Shown here: positions 3,753 to 56,663 of the stretch, piece after piece
Numbering within the stretch: the first letter of the stretch is position 1
Layout: each line of letters opens with the position of its first letter
NCBI RefSeq assembly: GCF_036321535.1
Contig: NC_087436.1
Span: 61,258,001-61,322,000 of the forward strand
Source of the DNA: Camelus dromedarius
Taxonomy: Eukaryota
Reading direction: 5' to 3'
Length of the DNA: 64,000 bases
Translations under genes and position numbers: made by a program
Notes under the pieces: generated by a model
Databases searched by the model: none
Told to the model about the DNA's origin: nothing
The model's input: only the letters and a program-made list of their open reading frames with translations

Positions 3753-4059
3753 CTGATCATATCCATTTCTAATACAGTCAGATTCTGTCACATTGTGTGT
3801 TCCATCCCACGACACTCCTGCACCCTAAACAACTAAATTTGAATAGATTATGATTGACCTTTGGGTTGTGCAAATGTGTGGGTTTAGACATACTCATAGT
3901 GACACCAACCTAAAGTATCACATGGACTACTTCAACTCCTAGCCGCCACCCCATGATCTGCTTAAGTACGTAGTTTTGCCTTTTCCATAATTGTCATAAA
4001 TGGGGTCAAACTGTGAGCAGCCTTCTCAGATTGGATTCTTTCAGTTAGTAATATACAAG

Positions 4060-4718
4060 TGAGACAGGAAGAGGGAAGAGCACAGCCATTCAAGGAATAA
4101 CACAGCAATTAACACCAGAATGGCTAAAGATTCAACCCCCAGGAGGCCTTGAGGCTCAAGATGGTGGGAGATTTGGCTTCTAGTAGACCTTGAACTTCAT
4201 TATACGCCCACTGTAATATATTAACATGGTGAATAACATGCCCACAGGCACCGTGACAGTCCAAAGGCCAGCCACAAAAGGTCAAAGAGTGGGAAATGAC
4301 CAACTTCGTGGGAATCCTGGCCCCTTCCCAGCCCCTTCCCCAGGCTAGTTAGACTGGTCCTTCCACTTACTAGCGTATGAAGCCACTTAGCCCATAAAAA
4401 CTAGCAAAGTGGCTGCTGCTGCCGCCCCCCCTCTTCCTCCCCCACTCCCCCCACTTCAGAGACAACCTGCACTCTGTCTGTGGAGTGTGTACCTACTTTT
4501 ACTCTAATCTGAACACCCAACCTCCATACCTTGTGGCCTTTCTTTTGCCTTTCAGTGTATCTCTCTAAATCTACCTTGACTCAACTGTGGCTCGCTCTTG
4601 AATTCTTTCCTGTGTGAAGCCAAGGACCAACACTTGGTGGGGCATGTCTTGGGGTGGGGCTCAACCAAAGCCTGGGACATGGCCCTCCTCATGCCCTACA
4701 TCCGTTTTTCTTGCATCA
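4060..4718 (+). mobile_element. ERV1-type solo LTR
   Basis: TG...CA termini (tgagacagg...ttgcatca), TATA-like cataaaaa at ~4393, and an R/U5-like segment (ctcgctcttgaattctttcctgtgtgaagccaaggacc). The host L1 resumes on both sides. Confidence 0.8.
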
Positions 4719-4792
4719 CGGGTAAGATTTACCCACGTCTTTCCATGAGTTGATGGTTTAATTTCTATTGCTGAGTAGTATTCCATTGCATA

Positions 4793-5322
4793 TGTATGGG
4801 AGGAAAACCAGTTTTCCTTCTTCCCATCTAGGTTCTTGGATGAGACCTCCCAGCCCCTAATAAGACAGATTACTGGGAGAAAAACAAACAAGTTTAATAA
4901 CATGTGTACCTCCTGTGTGCAGGGTAGATACCCAGGAAAACTGAGTCCTTCCCTGAATGGCCAAAGGCATCACCTCAAATATGGTATTTAGCTAAAAACA
5001 AAAGCGAGGCGGTGGAGAGGGAGGAAGTCCATTATGGCAGGTAATCTTGAAAGCTCAGTAAACAAGAGTGTGTTTGTTATGCAGATTTAAGTTAGGACTT
5101 CTCTATTGACAAGAGTTAGTTGTGATTTAATCAGCCTTCTATTTCTGATACAAAGAGGGACACACCCTTACAAATGTAGATTTTCCTATTAAATGTAAAT
5201 ATCACTCACAAAAGGGCAACCTCTACTCAGTTTTCTATGTTTTTTTTTTTTTTTTAAATTAGCCCACAGTAATCTTTATGCCAAAGAAGCCTATTTTGGG
5301 GTGGCTTACTCTGCTCTTATTG
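4793..5322 (-). mobile_element. MER34-like ERV1 solo LTR
   Basis: The reverse complement begins ...agcagagtaagccaccccaaaataggcttctttggcataaagatta, resembling the remembered MER34 5' end. It interrupts the L1 motif ttccattg|atggatgtac. Confidence 0.7.
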
Positions 5323-6699
5323 ACATGGATGTACCCCAATTTGCTTATGCCTTCATCTATTGAAGGACATCCTGATTTCAAATTTTTAGCCAATATGAAC
5401 AGAGCTGCTGTACATAACTGCATCCTAGTTTGTGTTTGGACATAGTTTTTCGAAGCACTTGCCTAAATACTCGATGCAGGATTTTTGGATCCCAAGGTGA
5501 GACTTGCTTAGCTTTGAGAAAAACGACCAAACTCTTACGAAGTGGCTATGCATGCATTCCACCAGCAATGAGGGAGTTCTGCTGTTCCTCACCACCAGCA
5601 AATGGTATTATCATGTTTTTGGAGTTTAGTGGTCCCAATAGGTGTACCTTGATATCTTGTGATTTTAACTTATAATTCCCTAATTGTATATGATACTGAG
5701 CATATTTTTGTATGCTTATTTACTGTCTGTTTTGGCTGGGCATCTGTTCAGATCTTTACCCATTTTTATTTTAGAGCTCTTTGTTTATTATGAGTCCAAA
5801 TCATGTATCAGATATGTGTTTTGTAAATATTTTTCTCACAGTTTGTGACTTGTCTTTTGGCTTTCTGAATGAGGTCTTTCAGAGTAGAAATCTTTTATAA
5901 AGTCCATAATACTACTTTTTTGTGGATTGGCTTTTTGTGTAGTGTGATAAAACGCAAAGGTCATAATCTACGTGACCAAATCCAAGGTCATGTAGTTTTT
6001 TTTCTGTTTATCTGTATAATTTTGAGAGCTTCGGATTTTAAATGTGTGTGAATAAGTTTGAGTGAATTTGTTGTAAGTTTTAAAGTTTTTGTCTCCATTC
6101 ACATCATTCCTTAAGGCTTCCAATTAATTGTTCCTTAACTATTTGGAGAAGTTATGGATATTTGGCTATATTTCAGTTTGAATTTTCAGTTTAAAGGATT
6201 CAGCATAACTATCCTCATGGCAGGGCCTCTGGTGGCTGTGAGGGTAGCTTGGTTCCCACCTCCCTATCCACAGTGTAGTGGACTGAGCGGAGCTGCCTTA
6301 GGGCATCCCTCCCCCCTGCCCACCCCCTGACTGTCAGGGTGGCTGGGTCTGAGCTTTCCCATTGTTCTGGCAGGGCCCAGAGCCCACCTCTCCCACCTGC
6401 AGTGGGAACCCACTTGGCTTCCTGCTCAGCTGACTGGAACCATGTCTCCTCTGGACCTGGCAGGGCTTTGGGATCACAGGGGGCCATGTCCACGGTGACA
6501 GGAGCCAGTCTCCCCAGGACCCAACAGGAGGTGCTGCACTGAAGGAAAGATGAGGAGAAAAGAAACATGAGGAGAAGTTTCCTGTAAGGGCTGACTGCTA
6601 AGGGGAATCCCTCCTCAGAGGCCCTGGGAGAGGAAGGGCTGGATGTGGGAAACTGGGTTTTAGTCAGGTTTTGTGTGTAGTGTGGACAGTGTGCCATGT

Positions 6700-7405
6700 C
6701 CTTCTTTGGTGTGTGGTGTCTGGTTTTCCCAGCACCATTCATTGAGTGGACTGTCTTTTCCCCAATGTAGTTTCCTGGTTCCTTTCTTGTGAATTAACTG
6801 ACCACATACCCGTAGGCTTATTTCTGGACTCTATCTGTTCCTCTGGTCCATGTCTCTGTTTTTGTGCCAATTCCACACTTTTGGTGACTGTAATTTCCCA
6901 ATGGAGTGTGAAGTCAGGGAAGGAGATACCTCCAGCCTGTTCTTCTTTCTCAGAATCCCTTTGGCTGTTCAGGGTCCTTTGGGTTTCCACACTAATGTTA
7001 GGAATGTTTGTTCTGTTTCTGTGAAAAATGCCACTGAACTTTATTTTATTTTATTGAAGTATAGTCAGTTCACAATGTTCTGTTATTTTCTGGTGTAGGG
7101 TATAGTGATTTGGCAAGACTTGCTTTGAATTTGAACACAGCTTTGGGTAGAATGGATGTTTCCATTTATTTGTGCCTGTTCAGTTTCTTTCCTCAGTGTC
7201 TTAGAATTTTGAGTGTTCAGGTCTTTCACATCTTTGATTAAATTTATTGCTAGCTAATTTTTTAGATGCAATTGTAAATGGGATTTTTAAAAATTGTTTT
7301 CTAATGTTTCGTTATTGATGTATAGAAAGACAACTGATTTTTGTGTATTGATTTTGTATCTTGTAGCTTTACTACAATAATTCATTAGCTCTAACAGTTT
7401 TTTGA
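6700..7405 (-). mobile_element. L1 ORF2 fragments with a small nested L1 3' end (~7040-7110)
   Basis: ttttcccagcaccattcattga..., cctccagcctgttcttctttctcagaat. ORF 6739-6990 resembles ORF2 'AGGITLPDFKLY'. Confidence 0.8.
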
Positions 7406-12481: not shown

Positions 12482-12985
12482 TGCATGGACAGAAAAATAG
12501 TTTTTCCTCTACCCTTCTAGGATCTTGGTTGACACCCCCTCTGCAATAAAAGATTAACCAAAGAAGTTTAATAGCATGTATGCCTCCTATACACTTGGGA
12601 GATACCCAGGAACACTGAGTCACTCCCATTAATGGTCTAAGTCATCACGTTAAATACCATCTTCAGCTAAAAACAAAGACTTGGGGAAGAGAGGAGGCCA
12701 GTTATGTCAGGATATTGTGTAAAGCATGATATGGTTGATACTCAGATTTAAGACATGACTTTTCCACTAATAAGAATTACTTGAGGCTTAATTATCCTTC
12801 TATGTCTGGTACAGAAAGAGGGACACACCCTTAAAAATGGAAATTTCCTTAATAAATGAAAATGTCCTTCACAAAAGGGCAACCTCTACTCAGTTTTCAG
12901 AGTCTTTTGAAAAAAGTTAATCAGACTGTAGTAGTCATTAGGGTACAGACCTATTTGGGAGGTGGCATATTCTGCTCCCTGTGAC
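12482..12985 (-). mobile_element. MER34-like ERV1 solo LTR (paralogue of 4793-5322)
   Basis: Shares gatacccagga, cagatttaag, gggacacaccctta and cacaaaagggcaacctctactcagtttt with the first copy. Confidence 0.75.
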
Positions 12986-13674
12986 ATGAATGTGCCCTGC
13001 TTTGTTTGAGTTCATCTGCAGAAGGACATACCGATCACTTGAGTTTCTTAGCTGTTATGAATAGAGCTCCTGTGTGGTCCGTGATGCTAGTTTTTCTTTG
13101 AACAGTTTTTTAAAGCAGTTGTCTAAATACAAGAGCTGATTTTATTGGATTTGAAGTTGAGACTGTTTAGCTTTGGCAGAAACTGCCAAAGTGTTTTCCA
13201 AAGTTAGCTGTACCTGTATTCCACTAGGATCTTCAATATATTTTTGTATGATTATTTGCTATCTGTATACCTTCTTTAGCCAGGTGTTTGTTTCTGTCTT
13301 TACCAATTTTTAATGGGGTTGTTTGTTCTAGATTTTGTTGGTGTAATTTGAGTACAAATCCTTTATTAGATATGCATTTTGCAAATAGTTTCTCCTAGTT
13401 TGTGATTCCTCTTTTGTCTTTCTGAATAAGCTCTTTCACAGAGTAGAAGTATATAGTTTTATAAAGTCCACATTATTAATTTTTGTATTAATTTGTAGAT
13501 AGGCAGTTGGTGTTGTGTTAAAATGCATCACCAGACCCAAGGTCTTATAAATTTTCTCCCATTTCCTTTTAAATTTTTTACAGTTTTGTCATTTAAATTT
13601 GTCTATGGGCAGTTTTGAGTGAATTTTGGTATCAGTTGTAAAGTTTGTTTATGTTCTCTTCATTCTGTATGTTT

Positions 13675-14170
13675 TTCATTTGCATATATTTTCTCCCATT
13701 CTGGAGGTTGTCTTTTTGTTTTGTTGATACAAAGCTTAGCTGTGCAAAAGCTTTTAAGTTTAATTAGATCCCATTTGTTTATTTTTGTTTTTATTTCCAG
13801 TACTTCAGGAGCTGGTTCAAAATATATATTGCTGTAATCTATGTCCACGAGTGTTCTGCCTATGTTTTCCTCTAGGAGTTTTATAGTATCTGGTCTTACA
13901 TTTAGGTCTTTAATCCATTTTGAGTTTATTTTTTTATATGGTGTTAGAGAATGATCTAATTAGATGCATTATCTAAGTAGATTCTAATGCTGAAATTAGA
14001 ATGCTCTAATTTCAGTCTTTTACAGGTAGCTGTCCAGTTTTCCCAGCACCACTTACTGAAGAGACTATCTTTTCTCCATTTGTGTGTTCTTGTCTCCTTT
14101 GTCATAGATTAATTGACTATACACGCATGAGTTTACTTCTGGACTTTCTATCCTGTTCCATTGATCTATC
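13675..14170 (-). mobile_element. Young L1 ORF2 fragment
   Basis: ORF 13660-13848 contains '[19 protein letters not shown]...[13 protein letters not shown]', from the L1 ORF2p C-terminal region. Confidence 0.9.
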
Positions 14171-14174
14171 AAGA

Positions 14175-14950
14175 ATATATTTTTAAAAGGCTGCTTTGGG
14201 AGGTATGGAGAAGGTTGGACCTGGAATTCTTAAAGACATATTAGGAGGCTACTATGTAATTAGCCGAGAAGAATGGTGTTCACTGGCGTTGGGGTGACAG
14301 GGGAGCGGCCTCATAGAAGCAGGTGTCTGGCGGGGGTAGGCAGTGAGAAAGCAGCACAGAGCATCAAATGGGCCAGACAGGGAGGTGTGGAGTGTGACTC
14401 CCAGTGTGCTGAATTGTACTTATGCAACTGGAGAAGTGGTGGGAATGTTCGCTGAGAGAGGAAGGTCGTCTTGGAGGAGCACAAGTCTGGAGGTGAAGGT
14501 CGTTAGCATTTCTTTGCACAGCTTGGGTTTGAGGTGCCTGGAGGTATGCATTTGGATGCCATGGGCAGAGCTCTTATAAGGATGTTCGAATGTGTGCAAG
14601 ATTACTCATGGGAAAGTTTAGGATGAGATGATGAGGTGGCCCCCAGCACAAAGCTTGGAGTATTTCCAACAGTCGAAGGCTGAATACAGGGAGATTGATA
14701 AAGCAGATGGAAAAAGAGCTGCCCACGAAGTCGGAGGGAAATCAGAAGAGACAAGGGAATTGAGCATTTCAGGAGACATTGGTGGACAAGAGGGGCAACT
14801 CTCTCATTCAGCAGTGTGAGGGCCAGCGTTGATTTCAGTCGGTGCTGTCATAGGAGATGTGATGAGACAGCCACAAGTGGGGTTCCGTGTCTGAGTTCAG
14901 AGTGAGAAAAGTAGAGGGCCGGCCAGTGCAATTATTTCCTTTCTGCGAGT
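14175..14950 (-). mobile_element. Degraded L2 fragment
   Basis: Purine-rich antisense L2-like motifs (ggctgctttgggagg, ttaggaggctactatgtaatt, gggtttgaggtgcctgga). Confidence 0.5.
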
Positions 14951-16238
14951 CTGTTTAAATGCTCGAGAGAGGCATTCATTGAAAGGCAACTCAAAGGGGA
15001 CCTTAAAATGTCTAGCCCAGTCCAGGTGCAGTCAGGCCATCGCTGTGGGAACAGAACAGAGGCAGATGCACTGCTGATGGTTTGGGTGGCACTTTGGCAG
15101 TTCCTTGAGAATCTGGAGCATGAGGTCTCCAGCCTGCTGTCCTTCCACACTGGGCTGTTTGTCATCGAGAAACCATAGAGCATCAGGGAGTGTCACCCCA
15201 GGCCCCTGGCGGCTTCACAGAACCCACCCTGAAGGACGCAGGAGAAGTCACTGCAGCTTGTGAGTGCAGCCATGCATGTCATGTGATAGCTGGAGGGGAG
15301 CCTCAGCCCCAGCACGCAGCTTTCTGACCAGCCCAACCCTGGCCTTCCTTTGGGGTGATGCCTGGTGAGTACCCCTCAGGCCCTGCTGCTTAGAGCACCC
15401 TGCCAGGTGGGCCATGTTGCCTTCTCTGGATCAGAGGGCACTGACTTGGTCACTCGCTGGTCTCGCAGCTGGTGGAGGACGTGGGAGGGGATTTTGCTGG
15501 GGTGGCTCCTGGGAGATGGATCCCACCCCACCTGAGCTGCTTCCCTGCAGCCCCCCAGCATCCTACTGATCACCAATTCTCAGCGCTGCCTCTTGGAAGC
15601 GGCCACTCCCCTTCACATCTGCCAGCACCCTCCGGTCTCCCAGTTCCCACCTGAATCCTGCTCTTCCTTTCTCTTTCCACCCAGCCCCTCTCCTCCAACC
15701 TAGAGCAGCCACAACAAATACGCCCCCAGTCCCGCAGGGCTTCTGTGGCTCTGAGCTCGTGGCCTGCTGTCTGTGCCCCCTCTCACCATGCCCCTACCCA
15801 GCAGCAGAGAGCACAGCTTGCGCCTCTGTTCCCTCCCCCGCGATTGCTCATCAAAGGCCTACATCAGGCAGGCACCTGGGGTGGAGGGGCACTGCCGCCG
15901 TGGCTGGAGGTCAGAGCCAGAAAGTCAGATGCAAACCCAAGTTTTGCCACAGACTGGCTTTCTCAGGCTGGAAATGGTCTTTGGAGAAACACCAGGAGCA
16001 GACCGTCTGCCTGGTTTCTTTCCATCCCAAGGCGCCCCGCTCGGCACTGGCTTTGGGCACTGACTTTTGGTGCTGGCAGGTTGGGCAGGGTGCTACAGTG
16101 CCGGCTCTCCGTAGTTCAGAGCCGCGGAGGCACCTGCCCGGGGGACAACAGCCAGCTGAAGGGTGTGAGGACTCCGTTTGCTGCAGTCTCCGGGGCCACC
16201 GTCACTCGTGGACACTTGTTTTGCATTCTAACACAGTA

Positions 16239-16244
16239 TTTATT
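16239..16244 (-). terminator. AATAAA polyadenylation signal of the MIA3-like retrogene
   Basis: tttatt on the + strand, about 120 nt past the last MIA3-like codon (TGA at 16366-16368). Confidence 0.55.
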
Positions 16245-16365
16245 GAGAATTCATATACATGTGAAGCTACCCTTCCATGCCCCCTCCCCCCTCCCCTCCC
16301 CTGCACCCGAGTGCACCCCCTGCTGCCTAGGAAAGAGTTCCAGCACAAAAGTTTCTAAAGAAGCT

Positions 16366-17992
16366 TCACTCTGAGGAAACACACAAGAGTCCCTGCATGC
16401 TAACAAAGACACTCTCTAGCTCAGGGACCTCAGCCTCCTGCTGACACCACCACTCCCCCTGCTTCTGCAAGTCCTCCCCCTCCGAGTGATAGTACCTCTC
16501 CTGCAGCCTGTGGAGCTCAGCCAAGGACTCTTCTGTGCTCAGGGCTGGGGGCTCCCCTGGCATGTGCCTACGCCCCTCCCCACACCACGTCCCGGGGCAC
16601 CTGTTCTGCTGGCAAGTTCTTTAAAGGGTGTTCCTCCTCTGAGAAGTGAACAAGTGGATTTCTTCACGTTCAGTTTTCTTCTTCAGACATGCTGTACTTT
16701 TCCTTTAGTTCAGACATTGTCTTGTGGAGATTTTTCTTGCTTGTGTTCACAGCTGTCTTTATGACCTTCAGCTTTTTGTCAAACTGGGCCAAAGATGTAC
16801 CCCGTGCGGTTCACCTCCATGGACAGCTCTTTCAGCTTCTCTTGTTTGCAGCATCCCTTTCCCCTCAACAAGAGAGCTCTCCAGAGAAGAAGGACTCCCC
16901 AGGCAGTATGCAACCAGGACATCAGGTTGAATGTGGTCCCAGGCCAGGGGCCCACCAGCACCTTGGCCCAGTGACCCATCAGGAGGATCATGCTCTGAAG
17001 GGTTCAGAGCACCAAAGTGCTGACGTTTGAGCGCCTGCCCTTGACAAAGGCCACTGTCGCCTCCTTGGACAGCTGCTGCCGATGCCCTGGCCACAGCAAC
17101 AGCAGACAGAGTCTGGCCTGGGCTGGTGGCCTCGGATCTCTCACGTCTTGGTCAGGACTCCCCACGTCTTTCGGTCCAGGTCGCTCTTGCTGCCCCATTT
17201 CCCAGCCTCCAATCTGTCTGGTGGAGTAATTGAACTGCTGTGGCAGGCCGAGCTGGTTGTACCGGTTCTTCCCTTCATGGCTGTTGGGGCTGGGAGTCAG
17301 GGAGGCAGCCAGGCCAAGGTTGCCAGGAGGTGATAGGAGGTTTCTGGGGCCCCTCTCCTCACCCACTGCAGCCTCTGAGCTCAGATACCTGGAGGGCAGC
17401 GTGGGGATGGCACGTATGAGGACCAGAATGAGGTATTCCTCTTCCACCAGGTAGCAGCCTCTTCCTGCCAGCTGACCTAGGTCTGGCAAAGGTGCCGATG
17501 GCCACAGGCAGAAGAGGACTCGGGGAACAACCAAGGAAAGTTTCTGTCTGGATACCCACTGTGCACTTGGAGAGGGTTCTGGAGAGTGTGGCATGGGAGT
17601 CAGCGGCTGCCCTCTGTTTACCTTGGTGTCTGAGTGCTTGGCTGGCCAGTGAGAAGCTGGTTTGGGATGCCAGATGCCTGGGAGGGGTGCTCCCGGGATG
17701 GGCAGGGGTCTGCTGTGCTCCTGTTCTCGGAGCCCAATATCCCGCCATGGGGCTGGAACCAGAGGGAGAGGAACTGGGCTAACCCCCACGGGAGCAGGAG
17801 GCGCCAGGTGTGGGTGCGTGGACACTCCAGCCTGCAGAGAGGTATGAAGGTGGATGCCAGCATGAAAGTGGAGTGTGTAGTGTGGTTGAGGGGCCCAGAG
17901 CAAGAAGGGTGGGCACGGCGTGCGTCAGAGGTGGGCGTGGAGAAGGCAGTGGAGAAGGTGGCAACAATGAGCAAGAGCACCAGAAAGGCCAT
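16366..17992 (-). pseudogene. Intronless, highly divergent MIA3/TANGO1 (cTAGE family)-like retrogene, disabled
   Basis: Joining frames gives TLQSMILLMGHWAKVLVGPWPGTTFNLMSWLHTAWGVLLLWRALLL...QEKLKELSME...SLAQFDKKLKVIK...TERE...LSTEESLAELHRLQERYYHSEGEDLQKQGEWWCQQEAEVPELESVFVSMQGLLCVS. This is colinear with the remembered human MIA3 transmembrane and first coiled-coil region (LENAILLI...PGPDFYGLPW...IFLWRTVLV...SEKLK...SERE...LSEEKVKSECHRVQEE...[34 protein letters not shown]). In-frame stops occur at 17004-17006 and 16621-16623, with frameshifts near 16800, near 16690 and further upstream. Confidence 0.75.
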
Positions 17993-18026
17993 CTCTGCTA
18001 TGGCTGACCTCCGCGGTGTTGCTGGC

Positions 18027-18033
18027 TTTTATA
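18027..18033 (-). promoter_or_regulatory. TATA box (TATAAAA) of the retrogene
   Basis: Canonical TATAAAA beginning 41 nt upstream of the ATG at 17992, which has a good Kozak context (gagATGg). Confidence 0.6.
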
Positions 18034-18081
18034 ACCACTAGCGGTGCATCACAATACCTCCCTGTGACCCCTGCGGCCCCA

Positions 18082-18185
18082 CTGGCCAATTGCCAGGCAG
18101 CCCTCAGCAAGCCGCGCCTCTGGCCAATTGCCAGGCGGCTCTCAGCAGGCCACGCCTCTGGCCAATTGCCAGATGGCTCTCACCG
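18082..18185. repeat. 38-bp tandem repeat (~2.7 units), each unit containing CTGGCCAATTGCCAG
   Basis: Exact 15-mers at 18082, 18120 and 18158. Confidence 0.95.
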
Positions 18186-18193
18186 TGTCCCTC

Positions 18194-18650
18194 TGTAACA
18201 GAAAAGAACAAATCTGTCTCCATATGAGACCAGTTCCTTTGATTCTCACCCTGTTCCCTGTTTCCTGTTTCCTGGGCTTAGTCTTGCTAGCTCTGCACCT
18301 TTTATAAAAGAATGTTGCCTTCAGCCTGAAATACACAGGAGAGCCCATCATCAAGGCTCTGACCTTTAAGGGTATAACACTTTTGCACTCATATAATGAT
18401 GACAAATTGCAGAATAGAAAATAATGTTTGTTTTGTGGGAGGTTTACAGGGACACCAAGACCTGACCCACATGGACAGCTGCAAGGGCAAAGGACTCTGA
18501 CACCAAGAAGTTTGCACAACCAACCCCCTCCGTCCCTTTTTAGTATAAAAGGAGCCTGAATTCTGGCTTGGGGAAGATGGTTCTCTGGACCATTATCCCC
18601 CATCTTCTCAGTCGGCTGGCTTTCCAAATAAAGTTGCTATTCCTTGCCCC
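18194..18650 (+). mobile_element. ERV1-type LTR, 3' end apparently truncated
   Basis: Starts tgtaacag; TATAAAA at 18544-18550; AATAAA at 18627-18632 followed by gttgctattccttgcccc. Confidence 0.75.
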
Positions 18651-18909
18651 CCCTGCCCCTACAAAGTCTAGTCCAACCTTTCCTAAAACGTGTGACACAG
18701 CTTGTTTCTAGATATTATGTGTAGAAATTGGGGTTCAGTCATCAAAAAAGTCAGGAAACGTGGGACTTAACAATAAACATGCTTCTTCCTTCAGGTCTTC
18801 CCAACGTTTAATATCCTAATGGGACTCTGATCTGTAAGAGGCAGACTCCCAGATTACTTCACCTGGATTTAAAAGATCATCTGTATTGTTGACTTTGTTC
18901 CTGTCAATT

Positions 18910-20065
18910 AAAAAAAGTAATAAGGTATTTTTAGAGCAGTTTCAGGTTTAGAAAGTCACTGAGCAGGAAGTACAGAGAATTCCCACGTAACCTGCTCCTT
19001 TCTTGACCACTCACCCCAGTTTCTACATTATTAACAACTTGCACTAATGTGATACATTTGTTATAATTGATGGAGCAATGTTGATACGTTATTAACTGAA
19101 GTCTTTAGTTTGCATTAGTATTCTCTCTCAGCTTTGTGGGGTTCTATGAGCTTTGAGAAATGAGTGATAGCATGTGTCCGCTATACAATATCACAGAGCA
19201 GTTTCACTGGCTTAAATACCCTTTTTCACATCTGTTCACACCCCTCCCCCATAATTCCTGGCACCAGCAAACACTGATCTTTCCATTGTCTTTGTAAGTT
19301 TGCTTTCCCCAGAAAGTCATATAGTTGTACTCATCCAGTATGTAGCCTTTTCAGAATGAATTATTTTACTTACCTATATGCATTTAGAGTTTTTCTATGT
19401 CTTTTTTTGTTTGTTTGGCTTGATACCTCACTTCTGTTTATTTCTGAGTAATATTCCATTGTAGGATGGACCACAGTTTATTTATCCTTTCACCTGTTAA
19501 AAGACACCTTGGTTGCTTCCAGTTTCTCTCTGAATCATGAATAAATCGTGGATAAAGCTGCTAAAAACACTGGTGTGTAGGTTTACTGGGAAAATAAGTT
19601 TTCAGTTCATTTGGGTAAATGATTATGATAATGATGGCTAGATTGTATGTAAGACTGTGTTTAACTTTGTGAGAAGCCACCAAACTGTCTTGTGGAGTGA
19701 CTGGACCACTTTGCATTCCCATCAGCAGTGATGGGAGTTCCTGTTGCTCCATATCCTCACCAGCATTTGATGTTGTCAGTGTTTTGGATTTTAGCTGTTC
19801 TAATAGGTGTACAGTGGTATCTCCTTGTTTTAATCTGTGATTACTTAATAACAGCTGATGCTAAGCATCTTTTCACATGCTTTTTTCCACCTGTATATCT
19901 TCCTTAGCAAGGTATCTATTCATATCAATGCCTGCTTTTTAATTTTGTTGTTTTCTTATGGTTGACTTTTTAATTTTTTTTTTAATACTTGGATACAAGT
20001 CCTTTATCAGCCATGTGTTTCGCAAATATTTTCTGCAAGTCTGTGACTTATTTTTTCATTGTCTT
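18910..20065 (-). mobile_element. Old L1M (L1MB/MC-like) 3' fragment
   Basis: ttttagagcagtttcaggttt...gaagtacagagaattccca, followed by typical antisense 3' UTR and ORF2-end motifs. Confidence 0.8.
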
Positions 20066-23000
20066 AATCTGGGATCTTTTAAATAAGCATAATTGAAAGC
20101 TTTTAATACCCAGCATTTTCTTATTTATTTTCACTGGGCACCATCTATATACTTATCTACATCTGGCTTCAATGGGCAATTCTAAGTCTGCTTTAAAATG
20201 AAGTCTCTTTAGTGTTTTGCACTAACTCTCCACCCCCCCCCCCCCAATGGAGCCTCAAGGAGGAAGGTTGGTGCATGTGAAGTGATGGCACATGGTCGTC
20301 TTCCAGCAAAACTCTGATTGGAGGCATTCCTGTGACTATTAACAGTAGTCAATGTTATTGCTTTTATTTATTTTTTTTTAAATAATAACAGTTATTAGTC
20401 CTTGTTACTTGTGGAAAATGAGACCTTCAGTAAATCAATCACCTTGTCACACCTTTGGTTCCTCAGATGTGAAAGAGAAGTATAATATGAGCTCCCATGC
20501 AGGGCTGCTGTCCTGTTTGAAATGGACAATCATGAAATTACTCGGGGGATGACAGACACAAGGTCTCTGTTCAGTTCAGGAAGGTCATCCCTGCTTCCCT
20601 TTTCACTGGAAGGGTGTTGACCTGGCTGCTGGGTGTGTGTCTGGTCTGGATCCTGGTGCTGAAGAGTTCTCAAGAAGAAAGAAGAATCTTCCCTCTTCCT
20701 GGAACGTTATAGATTTTTTTTTTGACATTTCAAGTTGGCAAATATGATCCTTGTCCTGATGAGATAAAACATATTTGTTGATTATCTCCAGAAACCAGAG
20801 TAAATTCTTGGATAAAAAATAATAATAAAAAAAAAAAGTAAAATGTTTGAGTGCTTTCTTTGTAAACTCAGAAGACAACATTCTAGCAGTTTCTGTACCT
20901 ATTTTGGTGACCATCAATAGAAGCAACTAAAAATTAGTCAACAAAATAACAGCATTAATGGAAAGAGGAGGACGTGGAGCTAGAACGTGGGCCTGTGTTT
21001 CTAAGATGTAGTTTACAGACAAATGGAAATCTGCCTGCAAGTAATTCTCCTTAGGTTGTTAATGAGTAAGTTTACTCCCTCAAACCTCCTCAGTCTCACT
21101 CTGACCTGGCAGCCCACAGACTCTCATCATTTCCCGGATTTGATGATGGGTCCACATTACAGTGTCCTCTCCAGATTCCAGAATGATTTCATCTCTTTAA
21201 AGTAAAACTCATTTCTTTTCCTTCTGTCCCCCATTCCATTCTGCAGCGTGTGCTGAAATTCAAGGTCATCCTTCTCACTTTCCTCATCTCTCAAGGATCA
21301 AAAGTATAAAAGATAAGTGAGAAGCAAAATAAGAGGCAACTGAACTCCTTGGTCTTGTATAAGATGTCAGGGAAAAGGATCTATTGTTTAAAGGAGGCAG
21401 ACTAAAGATTATCAGATAAAACAATGAATCAAATTTTATGTCAAATTATATGTATCTACTGAATATCTAGGTATAGCCAGGAACTGTTACAGACACACTT
21501 CCTTCCATTCCAACAATTCAGTTAATTCATTTAGTCAAGGAGCATTGATTGGAACTTGCTTGGTGCCCGTATTGCAACCCAGGGATGTGATTTCAGAGCT
21601 CACTCTTTCAACTGTATTGTTCACTGCCTGCCTTGATGTACGCGTGTCTCTCCAGGACATGTGCCTCCTTGCTGGGCAGGTTACAGGGTTTGCTTATTTC
21701 TTATTTCTTACTATTTACTTATTTCACTTGGTGTGTAGAAAGCCGCCTGAGACTTCTAGTTGAACTGGAGAGAGATTTCTCTTTTGTCTGTCATTCAGTT
21801 TATTTTTTAAATAATTAAAGCACTAAAGTGGATATCTGATCTCAAATTTTGAATTGATTATTTAACACATTTCAGTTAAGCAGAAAAATTCTAATTAGTT
21901 TCTTCCCTTCAGTTATGGGAACTCAGCCTCTAGAAATATATCTGATACTTTAGTTGCCTTGGATAAAGAAATATGTATGCTTCCGAGATAATTCTGAATA
22001 TTTTGGATCATACATTAGACATAGTTTGCCTGTCACTAACTTATAATGCACTGGAACCCCCCAACAATACACCATTCTAGACATTACATTATTGTTACCT
22101 TAGAAAGTAACAGTGCATTAATCACATGGGGATAGAAATTTCAAAAATACTTGTGTACTAGGCTGTTGCTGCTCAGTGAGGATTAGGTGAGGCTCAGGGC
22201 GTGGATCTCAGGGAAGACAGTCCTGCTGAAAGACCAGCTGTACATGTGCTCCTTGGTAATTCAGCATCTCCTCTGTCTTGCTCTTTTTACTGCCGAGGAA
22301 AGATAAGTTTCTACTTTCTGGTACCAAGGGTGCTCAAGGATAAAACATGTCATTTTTATGGGTACTTTTTGGTGTCAAATGCAGAAATCATCTATAGGAG
22401 CTTTAACTGAACTGAAAAACAAACAAACAAAATCCGACCTAGCAGCTGCTCCCACCAATATGAAACCGGAACCAAAGTATGAGATCCTGCGGGGCTCTCC
22501 TGCATCTCCTCCTCTCACTCACTGTGCTCATTTCTGTGGGATCTGCCCCTCCAGCCCAGGGTCCCCTCGGTCTTGGCTGCGGGTGGAGACCCAGACCCAG
22601 TGAGCTGCTGTGTGTGCCCCAGGACATGTTGGCCAACGAGCTTACTCTGTTTTAGAATAAATACACATTACCATAATCACAAGAAGCTGGATAGATTTTA
22701 GGCTTTTCACTAATATGGGAATATAATTTGCATCATAGGCAGTCAGTGTGTCTTCTCTAACATGTGAAATCCCCTTACCTACATGACAAAGATTTGTCTT
22801 TTTTAGCTTTGTCCTTGTTATAATTGGAAAACCCACATATTTTCTGCCCTAGATGAAAATACTTGGTTTGTGCTGAATGCCAAGTTCAATAATTATCTTA
22901 CACAGAGATAATAGTTTAATAAAAGCAGACAAGTATATTGTAGAATATGAAAATATATCTGATTACTTCATAGGATTGGAATCTGTTCTAAGTATATTTA

Positions 23001-26762: not shown

Positions 26763-29700
26763 CTTAAAAAAAAAAACAATAAATTTGACATATAATATTG
26801 TGTAAGATTAAGGTGTACAGTGTGTACTTTGATACATCTATATATTGTAACTTAATTGCTGATATAGTGATATATATCACATTACATAATTATAATACAG
26901 TATTATTGTTTATATTCATTATACTGTGCCTTAAATCTCTGTGTCTTATTTACTACTTGTTGTAAGTTTGTACCCTTAAACATCATCAGCCTTACCCCTT
27001 GTACTTACCACTTGTCAGCCATCCCCTGGTAACCATCTTTTTACACTCTGTTTTTTATAGGTTTAACTATTTTAGATTCTAGATATAAGGGATATCGTAT
27101 AATACTTGTCTTTCTCTGTTTTTATCTTGATTAACATAGTTGCCCTAGGTCTGTTGCAAATGGGAAGATATCCCTCTTTCTCATGGCTGAACAATATTCC
27201 ATTGTGTATTTGTACCACATCTTTTTATATCCCGTTATCCTTTGATGGGCTTTTGGGTTGTTTCCGTATCTTGGCTATTGTGAATAATGCTGTGATAAAC
27301 ACAGGAGTGCATATACCTCACTGAAATCCTGTTTTCATTTCTTTGGGTATGTTCCCAGAAGTGGAATTGCTGGACTGTGTGTTAGATCTATTTTTAATTT
27401 TTTGAGGAACTTCCATATTATTTTCCATAGTGGTTGGACCAATTTACATTCCTATCAACAATGTATAAGGGATTTTTCCCTTTTTACCACATCCTCACCA
27501 GCACCTGTCTTTTATCTTCTTGATAATAGCCATTTTAACAGGTACTATGTGATATCTCATTGTGGTTTTGATTCGCATTTCCCTGGTGATTAGTGATGTT
27601 TAGTATCTTTTCACGTGTCTGTTGGCCATTTTGATGCCCTCTTTTGAAAAATGTCTATTTTTAATCAAATTATTATTATTTGTTATTAAATTGACTGAGT
27701 TCTTTATGTATTTTGGATATTAACCATTTATCTGATATATAGTTTGTAAAAACTGTCTCCTATTATGTAGGTTATCTTTCCATTTTGTTAATTGTTTCTT
27801 TTGCTGTGTAAAGGATGAGTTTGATGTAATCCCATTTGTTGATTTTTGCTTTTGTTGTTTGTGCTTTTGGCATCATGTTAAAAAAAATAATAATCACCAA
27901 GACCAATATGGATGAGCTTCTTCCCTATGTTTCTTCTTGGAGTTTTATGGGATTAGGTCTTACATTTACATGTTTGATCCATTTTGAGTTCATTTTTGTG
28001 AATGGTGTGAAATAGGGGTCCAATTTCACTGTTCTGCGTACATTTCTCCAATTTCCCTGGCACCATTTGTTGAAGACACTGTCTTTTCCCCATTGGGTAT
28101 TCTTGACTCACTTGTTGAATATTAGTTGACTGTATATGCCAGGATTTAATTCTCGGCTTCCTATTCTGTTTCAACAGTTGATGTGTCTATTTTTGTGCCA
28201 GTACCATACTGTTTTTATTACTATGGCTTTATAGTATAATTTGAAATCCAGAAGCAGTGATATCTCCAGCTTTGTTTTTTTCTCTCAGGATTGTTTTGGC
28301 TATTTGGTTTTTTTTGTGGTTTCAGACAAACTTTAGGATTGTTTCTTCTATTTCTGTGAAGAATATCTTTGTATTTTGATGCAGATTATGTTGAATCTCT
28401 AAATGGCTTTGGGTGGTATGGTCATTTTAACAATATTAATTCTTCCAGTCTGTGAACACAGGATGTCTTTCCATTTGTTTGTGTCTTCTTCAGTTCCTTC
28501 CAGCAGTGTCTTGCCGTTTTCAGATATTGCCGTTGTACAGATATTTTACTTCCTTGGTTAAATCTGTTGCTAAATATGTTGTTATTCTTGATGCTATTGT
28601 GAATGGGATCATTTTCTTTATTTCTTTCTCAGATGCTTCATCATTACTGTAAAGAAATGCAATTGATTTCTGTATGTTGATTTTGTATCCTATCACTTCA
28701 CTGAGATCATGGATTAATTCCAACAGTTTTTTGAACAACTCCTTGGAATTTTCTACATATAAGATTCTGTCATCACCAAATGACAGTTTTACTTTCTTCT
28801 TTTGGATTTCGATGCCTTTTATTTCTTTGTCTTGCTTTATTGCTCTGAGGACTTACAGCACTATATTGAATAGAAGTGGTGAGAATGGCATTCTTGTCTT
28901 GTTTCTGATCTTAGAGGAAATGTTTTCTATTTTTCCCCATTGAATATAATGTTAGCTGTGGGTTTGTTGACATATGGTCTTTATTATGTTGAGGTATATT
29001 CCTTCTATAATCAATGTATTAAGAGTTTTTATCTTGAAATAAAGTATTTTTGTCAAATACTTTTTCTGTGTCTATTGAGGTGATCATGTGGTTTTTATTT
29101 TTTATTTTATTGATGTGATGTATTACATGTGTTGATTTGCATATGTTGAACCGTCCTTTCATCTCAAGGATAATTCCCAGTTGGTCATGGTGTAAATCCT
29201 TTTAATGTGTTCTTGACTTTGGTTTGCTAATGTTTTGTTGAGAATTTTTGCATCTATATTCATCAGGGATATTGGTCTATAGCTGTTTTTTTTCCTCTCG
29301 TGGTATCCTTATCTAATTTTGGTATCAAAGTATGCTAGCTTCATAGAATGAGTTTGGAAGTGTTTCCTCCTCAATATTTTGGGAGGGTTTGAAGAGGAAA
29401 ATTTGATATGTTTTATTTCCATTTTCATTTGTTTTGAGGTAATTTTTACTTCCCTTTTGATTTCTTCTTTGACCCAATGATTGTTTGAAAGTATGTGTGT
29501 GTGTGTTTGTCTTTTGAAAGTGTGTTGTTTATTAATTCATCTTTAAATGTTTTGTAGAATTCTCCAGTGAAGCCATCATGGAGTTTCCTGTGTTGGGGTT
29601 TTTTTGGTTATTGATTCAATCTCTTTATTAGTTATTGTCTGTTTAAATTTTCTAGTTCTTCCTGATTTAGTCTTGGTACATTGTGTGTTTCTAGATGTAT

Positions 29701-30620
29701 CCATTTCTTCCAAGTTGTTTAATTTGTTGGCATATAATTGTTCATAGTAGTCTCTTATGATTCTATATATTTCTGTAGTATTAGTTGTGGTGTCTCCTCT
29801 TTTATTTTCATTTTTATTTTCATCTTCTTTCTTTTTTCTTAGTCTAGCTAAATGTTTGTCAGTTTTGCAAATCTTTTCAAAGAATCAGCTCTTAGTTTTT
29901 TTGATCTATTCTGCTGTTTTTCTGGTCTCTGTTTCATTCATTTCCACACTGATCTTTATTATTCCCTTCCTTATGCTAACTTTGGGCTTAATTTGTTCAT
30001 ATTTTTCCAGTTCCTTAAGATGTAAAGTTAAGTTGTTTATTTGACATCTTTTAAATTTCTTAATATATGTGTTTATTGATATAAAATTTCCTCTGAGAAC
30101 TGTTTTTGCTACATCCCACAAAATTTGATGTTTTATTTCCATTTTCATTTGTTTTGAGATAATTTTTACTTCCTTTTTGATTTCTTCTTTGACCCAATGA
30201 TTGAAAGTTTGTTTTTTTATTTTATTTTTTGAAAGTGTGTTGCTTAATATCCATATATTTATAGATCTTCTCATTTTCCTCTTGTTGATATCCAGTTTCA
30301 TACCATTCTGGACAGAGAAGATAGTATGATCTTAATCTTCCTAAATTTGCTAAGATTTGTTTTGTGGCCTATCATATGATCTGTCCTGGAGAATGTTCCA
30401 TGTGCATTTGAGAAGAATGTGTATTCTACTTCTACTGGATGGAATATTTTGTATATGTTTATATGTTTATTTGTTCAATTCCAAGGTTTCCTTGTTGATT
30501 TTCTGTCTAAATGATTTCTTCACTGTTGAAAGTAGAATATTGAAGCTTCCTACAATTATTGTATTGTTGTCTATTTCTCTCTTAAGGTCTATCATTATTT
30601 ACTTAATGTATTTTGGTGCT
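26763..30620 (-). mobile_element. 5'-truncated L1 (~3.9 kb), degenerate ORF2 plus 3' UTR
   Basis: ORF fragments 'LWDVAKTVLRGNFISINTYIKK...INNLTLHLKELEK' (29906-30301) and 'KLLELIHDLSEVIGYKINIQKSIAFLY' (28520-28738) match L1 ORF2p; the frame has many stops. Confidence 0.95.
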
Positions 30621-31118
30621 TGATAAAATTCTTTATCTTGAGAAATGCAACATGGATTTAGTTTAACTTGAGTTAGTGCATAAAGGGAGATTATAAAGTA
30701 CTTTACAAAGAAATTATGATGACAACTCTGAAGGGAGGGCATTTCTTCCCTAGTGAAATCGTTTGATGATTGTAGGTTTAATTCAGGTTGAAGTCAGGTT
30801 ATTTTATTACTCACTGCTCCTTAACCCCAAACTAATTTTGACTTGCTTTTCCTTTACTCCAGCTTCCTTTCAGGATGTCAAAATATGTTATAATACCAAT
30901 AACACTAATAATAAAGATAATACTTTAAAAATAGCCTATACATCTGGAGTGCTTGTTTTGTGTCAACACTTTTCTTTATACATATTTCACTTATTTCTTT
31001 CAGCAATCTTAGGAGGTAGATGTTTTTATTAACTCCATTCTAATATAGGAAATTTACATAGTTTTTCCAATCTCATTCAGCTGGTAAATGATAGTGTTCA
31101 AATCCAACATAGCTCTTA

Positions 31119-55275: not shown

Positions 55276-56663
55276 TAAGAGAAGACACTATAAACCTCTT
55301 AGAAGAAAATATAGGCAAAACATTCTCTGACATAAATCTCAGCAATGTTCTCCTAGGGTAATCTACCCAAGCAACAGAAGTAAAAGCAAAAATGAACAAA
55401 TGGGACCTAATTAAACTTAGTAAGCTTTTGCACAGCAAAGGAAACCATAAGAAAAGCAAAACGACAACCTACGGAATGGGAGAAAATATTTGCAAAAGAT
55501 GAGACTGACAGGGCTCAATCTCTAGAATATATAAACAGCTCATACAGCTTAACAAGAAAAAAAAAAAAACAAACAACCCAAACCAGAAATGGGCAGAAGA
55601 CCTAAACAAGCAATTCTCCAGTGAAGATGTATGAAGGGCCAACAGGCACATGAAAAAATGCTCAGTACCACTAATTATCGGAGAAATGCAAATCAGAACT
55701 ACAATGAGGTATCACCTCACAGCAGTCTGAATGGCCATCATTCAAAAGTCCCCAAACAATAAACGCTGGAGAGGCTGTGGAGAAAAGGGAGCCCTCCTAC
55801 ACTGTTGGGAATGTAGTTTGGTGCAGCCGTTATGGAAAACAGTATGGAGATTCCTCAAAAAACTGAAAAATAGACTTACCTTATGATCCAGCAATCCCAA
55901 TTCTGGGCATATATCCAGAGAGAACCTTAATTCAAAAAGACGCATACACCCCAATGTTCATAGCAGCATAATTTACAATAGCCAAGACATGGAGGCAACC
56001 TAAATGTCCATTGACAGATGACTGGATAGAGAAGTTGTGGTATATATATACAATGGAATACTACTCAGCCATAAAATAATAAAATAATGCTATTTGCAGC
56101 AACAAGAATGAACCTGGAGAATGTTCTTCTAAGTGAAGTAAGCCAGAAAGAGAAGGGAAAGTACCATATGATAACATTTGTATGTGGACTCTAAAAAAAA
56201 GACAAATGAACTTATTTTCAAAACAGAAACAGACTCATAGACATAGAAAACAAACTTAAGGTTACCAGTGAGGGAAGGGATAAATTAGGAGTTTTCTGCT
56301 TGACCCAACTTTTATATTTAATTTTTCTGATTGCATTGAATAAGGAAGTTTCTGTTGTAATTTGGTAAAGTGACTTGGTAGGAACTTAGCAGGTACTGGT
56401 TTCAGGGTTAACAAGAGCTTTCTTTCAGTCACACTGAATGGGGATACTAACTAATATACACAAAATAGATAAACAATTTCATACTGTGTAGCACAGGGAA
56501 CTATATTCAGTATCTTGTAGTAACCTATGGTGAAAAAGAATATGAAAACGAATATATGTATGTTTCTGTATGAGTGAAGTATTGTGCTGTACACCAGAAA
56601 CTGACACAACATTGTTAACTGACTAAATTTCAATAAAAACAAAACAAAACAAAACAACTCCAA
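55276..56663 (+). mobile_element. Young 5'-truncated L1 (ORF2 end, 3' UTR, A-rich tail)
   Basis: Sense ORF2 C-terminal motifs and aataaa at ~56632. TSD aaaactaagattgc (55262-55275) / aaaactgagattgc (56664-56677). Confidence 0.95.

Follow-up and report, generated by a model that had tools for sequence, protein, structure and literature searches.

The window analysed here, a stretch of 64,000 nucleotides of the dromedary camel genome, carries on its minus strand the remains of a single-exon gene together with its control elements. An earlier note, made from the letters alone, had described a TATA box, an ATG, a TGA and an AATAAA on this strand, and all four were found at the places it gave:

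18194..18650, plus strand: high-copy LTR-like element adjoining the promoter, common to most copies of the gene and with the same edge
18082..18182, strand not assigned: 38-bp repeat unit in 2.7 copies, with a CCAAT-type box in each; 1-3 units in every surveyed copy
18027..18033, minus strand: TATA box TATAAAA, 35 nt 5' of the ATG; retained in 18 of 21 surveyed copies
17992, minus strand: start ATG with G at -3 and +4; retained in 17 of 21 surveyed copies
16366..17992, minus strand: broken single-exon reading frame, 542 codons from start to stop, with five frameshifts and three in-frame stops
16368-16366, minus strand: stop TGA
16239..16244, minus strand: poly(A) signal AATAAA of the sense transcript, with cleavage near 16217

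The layout is beyond chance, because TATAAAA and ATG are mostly retained among the copies and because the A-tails of the paralogues L011 and L023 begin at the equivalent of window 16216-16219, just past the AATAAA. No poly(A) remnant or target-site duplication of the founding insertion is visible behind the AATAAA of the window copy. The GC content of the gene block is 55-60% vs 39% for the window, and the LTR-like element at 18194..18650 has many genomic matches at 82-85%. Frameshifts lie at about 17631, 17313, 17241, 16803 and 16552, and in-frame stops at 17004, 16670 and 16664. The alpaca protein P0001 aligns to the window by tblastn as three collinear pieces in three frames, in line with the previous description of some 540 codons spread over three frames. 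The window copy is a pseudogene today, as the note had held. Sequencing error is an unlikely source of the damage, since there are eight separate lesions, three of them point changes.

Remnants at 13680-14170, 27000-31000 and 55276-56195 are presumably LINE-1, a label taken from the translation at 29906-30331. A GC-rich patch at 22369-22625 is the 5' end of a 6.4-kb stretch common to L023, and the sequence beyond it differs. Window 3900-7200 and 12843-13676 belong to a block that has copies near the ends of most chromosomes, at 80-88% identity; the window block is a relocated subtelomeric segment, sitting mid-chromosome at 61 Mb of a 123-Mb contig. Locus L029 (G000:C36:13243995-13246099) is a copy of window 13676-19670 minus 15339-19172, the whole gene and the LTR. 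It was considered as a retrocopy and rejected: the joint from window 15338 to 19173 is without splice signals, and we read it as a deletion.

A DNA search of the 2.3-Gb camel genome gave 41 matches in 23 loci on 12 contigs, at 69-91% identity. We retrieved 21 of the 22 loci outside the window, and surveyed TATA box, ATG and frame in the window and L009-L028 (21 loci). A full frame of 432-440 codons is present in three of these, L014, L018 and L024 (the last starting with GTG), and the other 18 copies are broken or shortened. L019 has a stop-free frame of 441 codons, but two 1-nt deletions past the ATG, and L022 a single stop in frame. Four copies, L025-L028 (on C18, C33 and C35), are cut at window 17741-17748 and retain the promoter; 98-123 codons are readable past their signal sequence, with a similar 123-codon frame in three, and small secreted products are possibly made from them. 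A tree of 15 copies sets a long type (window, L009, L010, L011 and L023; group A) apart from copies with a 252-nt deletion, which is carried by L012 and nine group-B rows. All long-type copies are broken. The window and L009 are sisters in this tree, with support of 95/96.

Named protein relatives occur in camelids only: an uncharacterized 435-aa alpaca protein (cluster of three) and a wild-camel prediction that is 99% identical to L009 across 72% of the query. Full frames are found in two genera, camel and alpaca, with a protein identity of 77-80%, so the intact members of a poorly described family that the earlier note anticipated do exist. A profile search of 1.84 billion proteins with HMMER returned 12 matches, all of them family members, namely two camel sequences and ten fragments that are only 37-47% identical to any retrieved copy; MIA3 was not among them. 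For nine of the ten fragments the source records were checked, and these belong to Logan, ENA or JGI. They probably represent host DNA of other mammals, and hint at a family extending beyond camelids. JGI metagenome scans found no family locus.

The origin of the gene had been placed in TANGO1/MIA3. We located a candidate parent in the host by short motifs; 16 of its exons, spliced, give 1461 codons without a stop, and its exon 2 matches the solved TANGO1 (PDB 7r3m, E 4.3e-23). Two profiles were compared to it, A3 from camelid sequences only and A4 including the distant fragments. Profile A4 is collinear with the membrane exon and first coiled coil (CC1) of host TANGO1 at 21.4 bits. A4 carries a coiled-coil bias; in controls, none of 500 ten-residue-window shuffles reached this score (shuffle maximum 12.3), the reversed sequence scored -16.7, and six windows of unrelated coiled coil scored -7 or less. 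Profile A3 gave just 4.5 bits on the host parent, reached by 4 of 500 shuffles. In pairwise comparisons with host TANGO1, the distant fragments P0015, P0003 and P0005 matched at E 2e-9, 7e-9 and 8e-8. The last ORF of the window has 17 identities in 52 positions with the spliced host gene (pairwise E 1.4e-4), which upholds the likeness to human MIA3 noted before by manual alignment (about 20 in 58). Together the matches span eight junctions of AG/GT-bounded parent exons, and the piece therefore passed through mRNA: it is retro-derived with its introns lost, as the note had proposed. At the DNA level, similarity to the parent was not detected by nhmmer, and pairwise similarity was marginal (window 156 vs a shuffle maximum of 151; L009 and L010 inside the shuffle range). 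GC3 is about 0.7 in the family vs 0.35 in the parent.

The link to MIA3 is visible only by direct comparison with the host gene. Pfam searches gave no MIA3, and generic coiled-coil matches below the cut-off only. MIA3 was likewise absent from a PDB search with profile A3 (best E 0.1), from word-index searches, which returned camelid proteins only, and from an ESM Atlas search, which returned assorted coiled coils at low recognition. Searching the unspliced parent with the profile one exon at a time gave nothing significant. The profile or BLAST match that the note expected was thus obtained by direct comparison and in no library search. This silence of the libraries would fit a chance match of hydrophobic and heptad patterns. 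It has also to be asked whether the parent was the paralogue on C5, which we take to be MIA2/cTAGE5, since by score the camelid members do not tell the membrane exons of the two genes apart (24-30 vs 25-34). Set against both possibilities are matches collinear over eight junctions, scoring above shuffles that retain local composition, and the three distant fragments, which score higher on the MIA3 exon than on the paralogue exon (55-60 vs 37-47; one exon compared). We regard chance likeness or a cTAGE5 parent as extremely unlikely, and MIA3 is more likely to be the parent than CTAGE5.

A TANGO1 derivation is demonstrated for roughly the final 230 codons and no more. For the first 300 residues no match could be detected in the spliced parent (N-terminal profile) or in Pfam, and the order of membrane region and coiled coil claimed earlier stands for the last part of the frame alone. 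An assignment of family residues 150-175 to parent exon 1 was rejected, as the similarity was reached by 254 of 1000 shuffles for protein and 36 of 300 for DNA. Residues 154-174 of the L012 ORF, which begin with Met, look like the parent N-terminus by eye and are not significant vs shuffles. Weak genome matches on C29 and C4 were rejected as parents, being an unrelated long coiled-coil exon and repeat sequence. The protein encoded by the window copy before its lesions can be divided as follows:

17942..17992, minus strand: hydrophobic N-terminus, a probable signal peptide from its hydropathy
17004..17941, minus strand: Pro/Gly/Ser-rich region, predicted largely disordered, without match to parent or Pfam
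16800..17003, minus strand: two moderately hydrophobic helices and coiled-coil start, homologous to the TANGO1 membrane region
16673..16798, minus strand: coiled coil derived from CC1, first part, which every intact camelid copy has lost by deletion
16378..16563, minus strand: last part of the CC1-derived coiled coil, containing the 17/52 identities with host TANGO1

By model and hydropathy the N-terminus of the intact protein is hydrophobic; 280 residues rich in Pro/Gly/Ser come next, then two helices of moderate hydrophobicity, and a further helix lies at the C-terminus. In intact copies the N-terminal stretch has a 19-residue hydropathy of 1.9-2.3, and the L018 model shows it as a helix. 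This model is of low confidence (pLDDT 44.5); residues 21-300 contain 52 Pro, with pLDDT mostly under 50. Homology of the membrane region is based on the alignment of profile A4 and the fragments P0003, P0005 and P0015 to the host membrane exon. The two predicted helices have a hydropathy of 1.2-1.5 vs 1.8 and 2.15 in the parent, and would be weak membrane helices. For the stretch at 16800..17003 the values are 1.2-1.3 vs 2.15 in the parent. Intact copies have lost most of CC1, with only the last part left. All frames end shortly past the CC1 match, and CC2 and the proline-rich domain at the C-terminus (PRD) are absent. No Pfam match was found in the window ORFs or P0001, and SH3 is absent.

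In TANGO1, passages of PMC5851698 assign collagen to the SH3 domain, cTAGE5 to CC2, and Sec23/Sec16 to the PRD; the same passages attribute self-association and NRZ tethering to CC1 residues 1255-1295. With SH3, CC2 and PRD absent and most of CC1 lost in intact copies, a TANGO1-like role is unlikely, and the family protein would be an improbable organiser of ER exit sites. A more modest role can be imagined, in which a shortened protein, anchored in the membrane and carrying what is left of CC1, attaches to TANGO1 or to the NRZ tether and adjusts bulky secretion. The activities assigned to residues 1255-1295 and the retention of most of CC1 in group-A copies speak for such a modulator. However, protein identity between family and parent amounts to 22-35%, a gap in the profile falls at about the 1255-1295 segment (numbering transferred roughly), and this segment is deleted in all intact camelid copies, which also lack CC2 and PRD. 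We consider a modulator of TANGO1 highly unlikely.

The copies spread by more than one route. An A-tail behind a poly(A) signal is present in 5 of the 21 retrieved paralogues, and three of these have a target-site duplication: L009 (14/16 nt), L030 (13/14 nt) and L011 (9 nt). L013 and L023 have an A-tail only, and no target-site duplication was found for them. Two insertions are in sense orientation (L011 and L023) and three in antisense (L009, L013 and L030). L009 consists of window 4421-4721, 6430-6549 and 15016-19521 joined to each other and followed by an A-tail, the whole bounded by a 16-nt duplication with two mismatches. The corresponding features of the window are:

4060..4718, plus strand: LTR-like element, TG...CA, the probable promoter of the antisense RNA
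4421..4721, plus strand: antisense exon 1, matched by L009 at 82%; GT donor at 4722
6430..6549, plus strand: antisense exon 2, matched by L009 at 86%; AG acceptor
15016..19521, plus strand: antisense exon 3, in which the gene lies complete, together with its promoter and the neighbouring LTR; the end of the exon is the site of the A-tails of L009 and L013
18772..18777, plus strand: alternative poly(A) signal of the antisense RNA, the one used in retrocopy L030

Antisense exon 1 begins inside the LTR, about 25 nt past a TATA-like box, and more than 20 chromosome-end copies of the block around it lack the LTR-like element at 4060..4718. The donor of exon 2 is AT in the window and GT in 5/5 paralogous blocks retrieved; the other joints are on GT/AG sites. 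ATTAAA lies 20 nt before the A-tail in L009 and L013, and its window equivalent is GTTAAA at 19496-19501. From the exon joints, A-tail and duplication of L009 it follows that the window locus made a spliced antisense RNA that was later reinserted, and the window locus is the donor of this retrocopy. No disabling lesion is common to the window and its daughter L009, and hence the window gene was probably intact when L009 inserted. The spliced junctions, poly(A) signal with A-tail and target-site duplication of L009 are those of LINE-1-type retroposition, and these hallmarks point to LINE-1 as the source of the enzymes. Retrocopies are heritable only if the RNA is present in the germ line or early embryo. 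An LTR retroelement with a captured host gene was rejected, as self-comparison of 21 loci found that the promoter-side LTR is not repeated behind the gene.

Group-B copies have kilobases of both flanks in common at 85-98%, and an SH3 exon lies 5-6.5 kb upstream of eight group-B loci (L032:530-712 and seven more). For these two reasons we ascribe the multiplication of group B to segmental duplication. The upstream SH3 exons were considered as part of MIA3 and rejected; the one tested is SH3YL1-like.

We computed dN/dS with transition correction for 12 pairs of copies. In 11 of the 12 it was 0.69-0.95, compared to 0.77-1.31 in other forward frames, and in nine of those 11 pairs it was below both other forward frames. 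Residue-level constraint is therefore weak. The twelfth pair, L014/L018, had a dN/dS of 4.0 (16.5 nonsynonymous vs 1.5 synonymous changes), and positive selection between these copies was rejected as not significant (P 0.06). At the level of the frame, the path to L018 remained open across a distance of about 0.2 substitutions per site; in 3000 simulations (frameshifts excluded), the probability that a neutral frame of 440 codons gains no stop across 0.20 substitutions per site was 0.0013. Indels on this path net to multiples of three. Long-type copies have many lesions over just 0.07-0.13 substitutions per site. For the group-B lineage, though not for the window copy, frame-level constraint is thus clearer than residue-level constraint. 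The fast-evolving functional retrogene of the earlier note is supported in so far as the frame was kept open and the promoter conserved, while the weak amino-acid constraint and the non-significant positive selection do not bear it out; dN/dS near 1 counts against it, yet the intact relatives it called for exist.

L018 is partly present in 20 sequencing runs, 8 of them recorded as RNA and coming from 2 studies. Four runs were mapped to L018:2600-7400, two as contigs (X1 and X5) and two as raw single-cell reads (X21 and X24). Contig depth, a poor measure of expression, was compared between 8 ORF bins and 10 non-repeat flank bins (12 repeat or boundary bins excluded). Depth over the L018 ORF relative to the flanks was raised 7.8x in X1, which carries the label 'reproductive system metagenome', and 21.5x in X5; since contigs are strandless and DNA may be present, it is only suggestive of expression. 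In X21 and X24 depth was under 1 over the ORF. In RNA-run contigs one 38-bp promoter unit is skipped and a 15-nt in-frame repeat unit is missing (L018:4050-4089 and 4787), and from these variants several paralogues or alleles are present in the RNA runs. Both ATG and GTG starts occur in the contigs over L018.

Many of these observations would also be expected of transcribed pseudogenes, with a founder that was functional long ago and present open frames that are leftovers multiplied by recent segmental duplication. The dN/dS of 0.7-0.95, the 18 of 21 copies broken, the group-B flanks in common at 85-98% with their SH3YL1-like passenger, and the missing signal in two raw-read runs all agree with this. 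Such leftovers do not readily account for an L018 lineage that kept its frame across about 0.2 substitutions per site (P 0.0013, counting stops only), in which fixed indels net to multiples of three whereas group-A lesions are many over 0.07-0.13, or for full frames in two genera at 77-80% protein identity. Relic frames of this kind are, in our judgement, improbable, and the family is probably alive although the window copy is a pseudogene.

The explanation that we favour begins with an old mRNA-derived piece of TANGO1/MIA3, comprising membrane helices and CC1, that would have come to form the 3' third of a new gene of one exon, equipped with a signal peptide, a Pro-rich region and a TATA/CCAAT promoter of its own. 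In camelids this gene multiplied in two ways: long sense and antisense RNAs, promoter included, were inserted by LINE-1-type retroposition, and segmental duplication added further copies. The window copy was a donor and probably a working member, dead since, and the sub-family with the 252-nt deletion retains open frames in camel and alpaca. The intact protein is predicted to enter the ER; its lumenal or surface part would be disordered and probably glycosylated, with a weak hairpin in the membrane and a short helix on the cytosolic side, and COPII recruitment is presumably impossible. In germ-line or reproductive cells it may serve a role of fast turnover, as thought for primate CTAGE genes. 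On balance we find it fairly likely that the family encodes a secretory-pathway or surface protein under birth-and-death evolution, with reproductive or germ-line cells as the presumed tissue and site of function. A bolder version, possible though doubtful, is that of a TANGO1-derived gene predating camelids, missed by mammalian annotation and encoding a germ-line membrane protein under rapid birth and death, in which LTR-driven antisense RNA repeatedly moves gene and promoter together and new retrocopies can be expressed from the start.

The family resembles TANGO1/MIA3 in how its membrane helices and CC1 are ordered, in the weak match of their sequences, and in its N-terminal signal sequence. 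It differs in having a single exon, in lacking SH3, CC2 and the C-terminal PRD, and in its new 300-residue Pro-rich region. CTAGE copies stay close to CTAGE5. The camel family is far more diverged and restructured, is camelid, and underwent further retroposition that carries the promoter, unlike the primate CTAGE cancer-testis family. Both are TANGO1-family retropositions followed by DNA-based duplication and lineage-specific expansion, the order of events for CTAGE being that given in passages of PMC4949931. Promoter DNA carried inside the copied RNA is a likeness to Pgk2, Drosophila siren and LINE-1/SVA transduction; AMAC is an example of such LINE-1/SVA transduction. In contrast to these, the camel carrier is a spliced, LTR-started antisense RNA enclosing the whole gene, with two poly(A) sites across three insertions (L009, L013 and L030); two sense insertions exist in addition. 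Inheritance of parental regulatory regions by retrocopies is known and rare; in mouse and human it concerns about 3% of them, according to a passage of PMC5470649.

No report of a MIA3-derived camelid family or of a MIA3 retrocopy was found in searches of openly available full texts. The family presented here is an undescribed retrogene family that expanded in one lineage, in parallel to primate CTAGE, and has a presumed protein function. It provides an origin for 'uncharacterized' alpaca proteins that no library search places, and a clean, dated-by-structure case of whole-gene duplication via spliced antisense RNA in which the promoter is retained by the retrocopy. It would be the second case, independent of primate CTAGE, in which a retrocopy from the TANGO1 family was recruited into a gene family expanded in one lineage, and such a second recruitment makes it testable why the membrane-plus-coiled-coil module gets reused.
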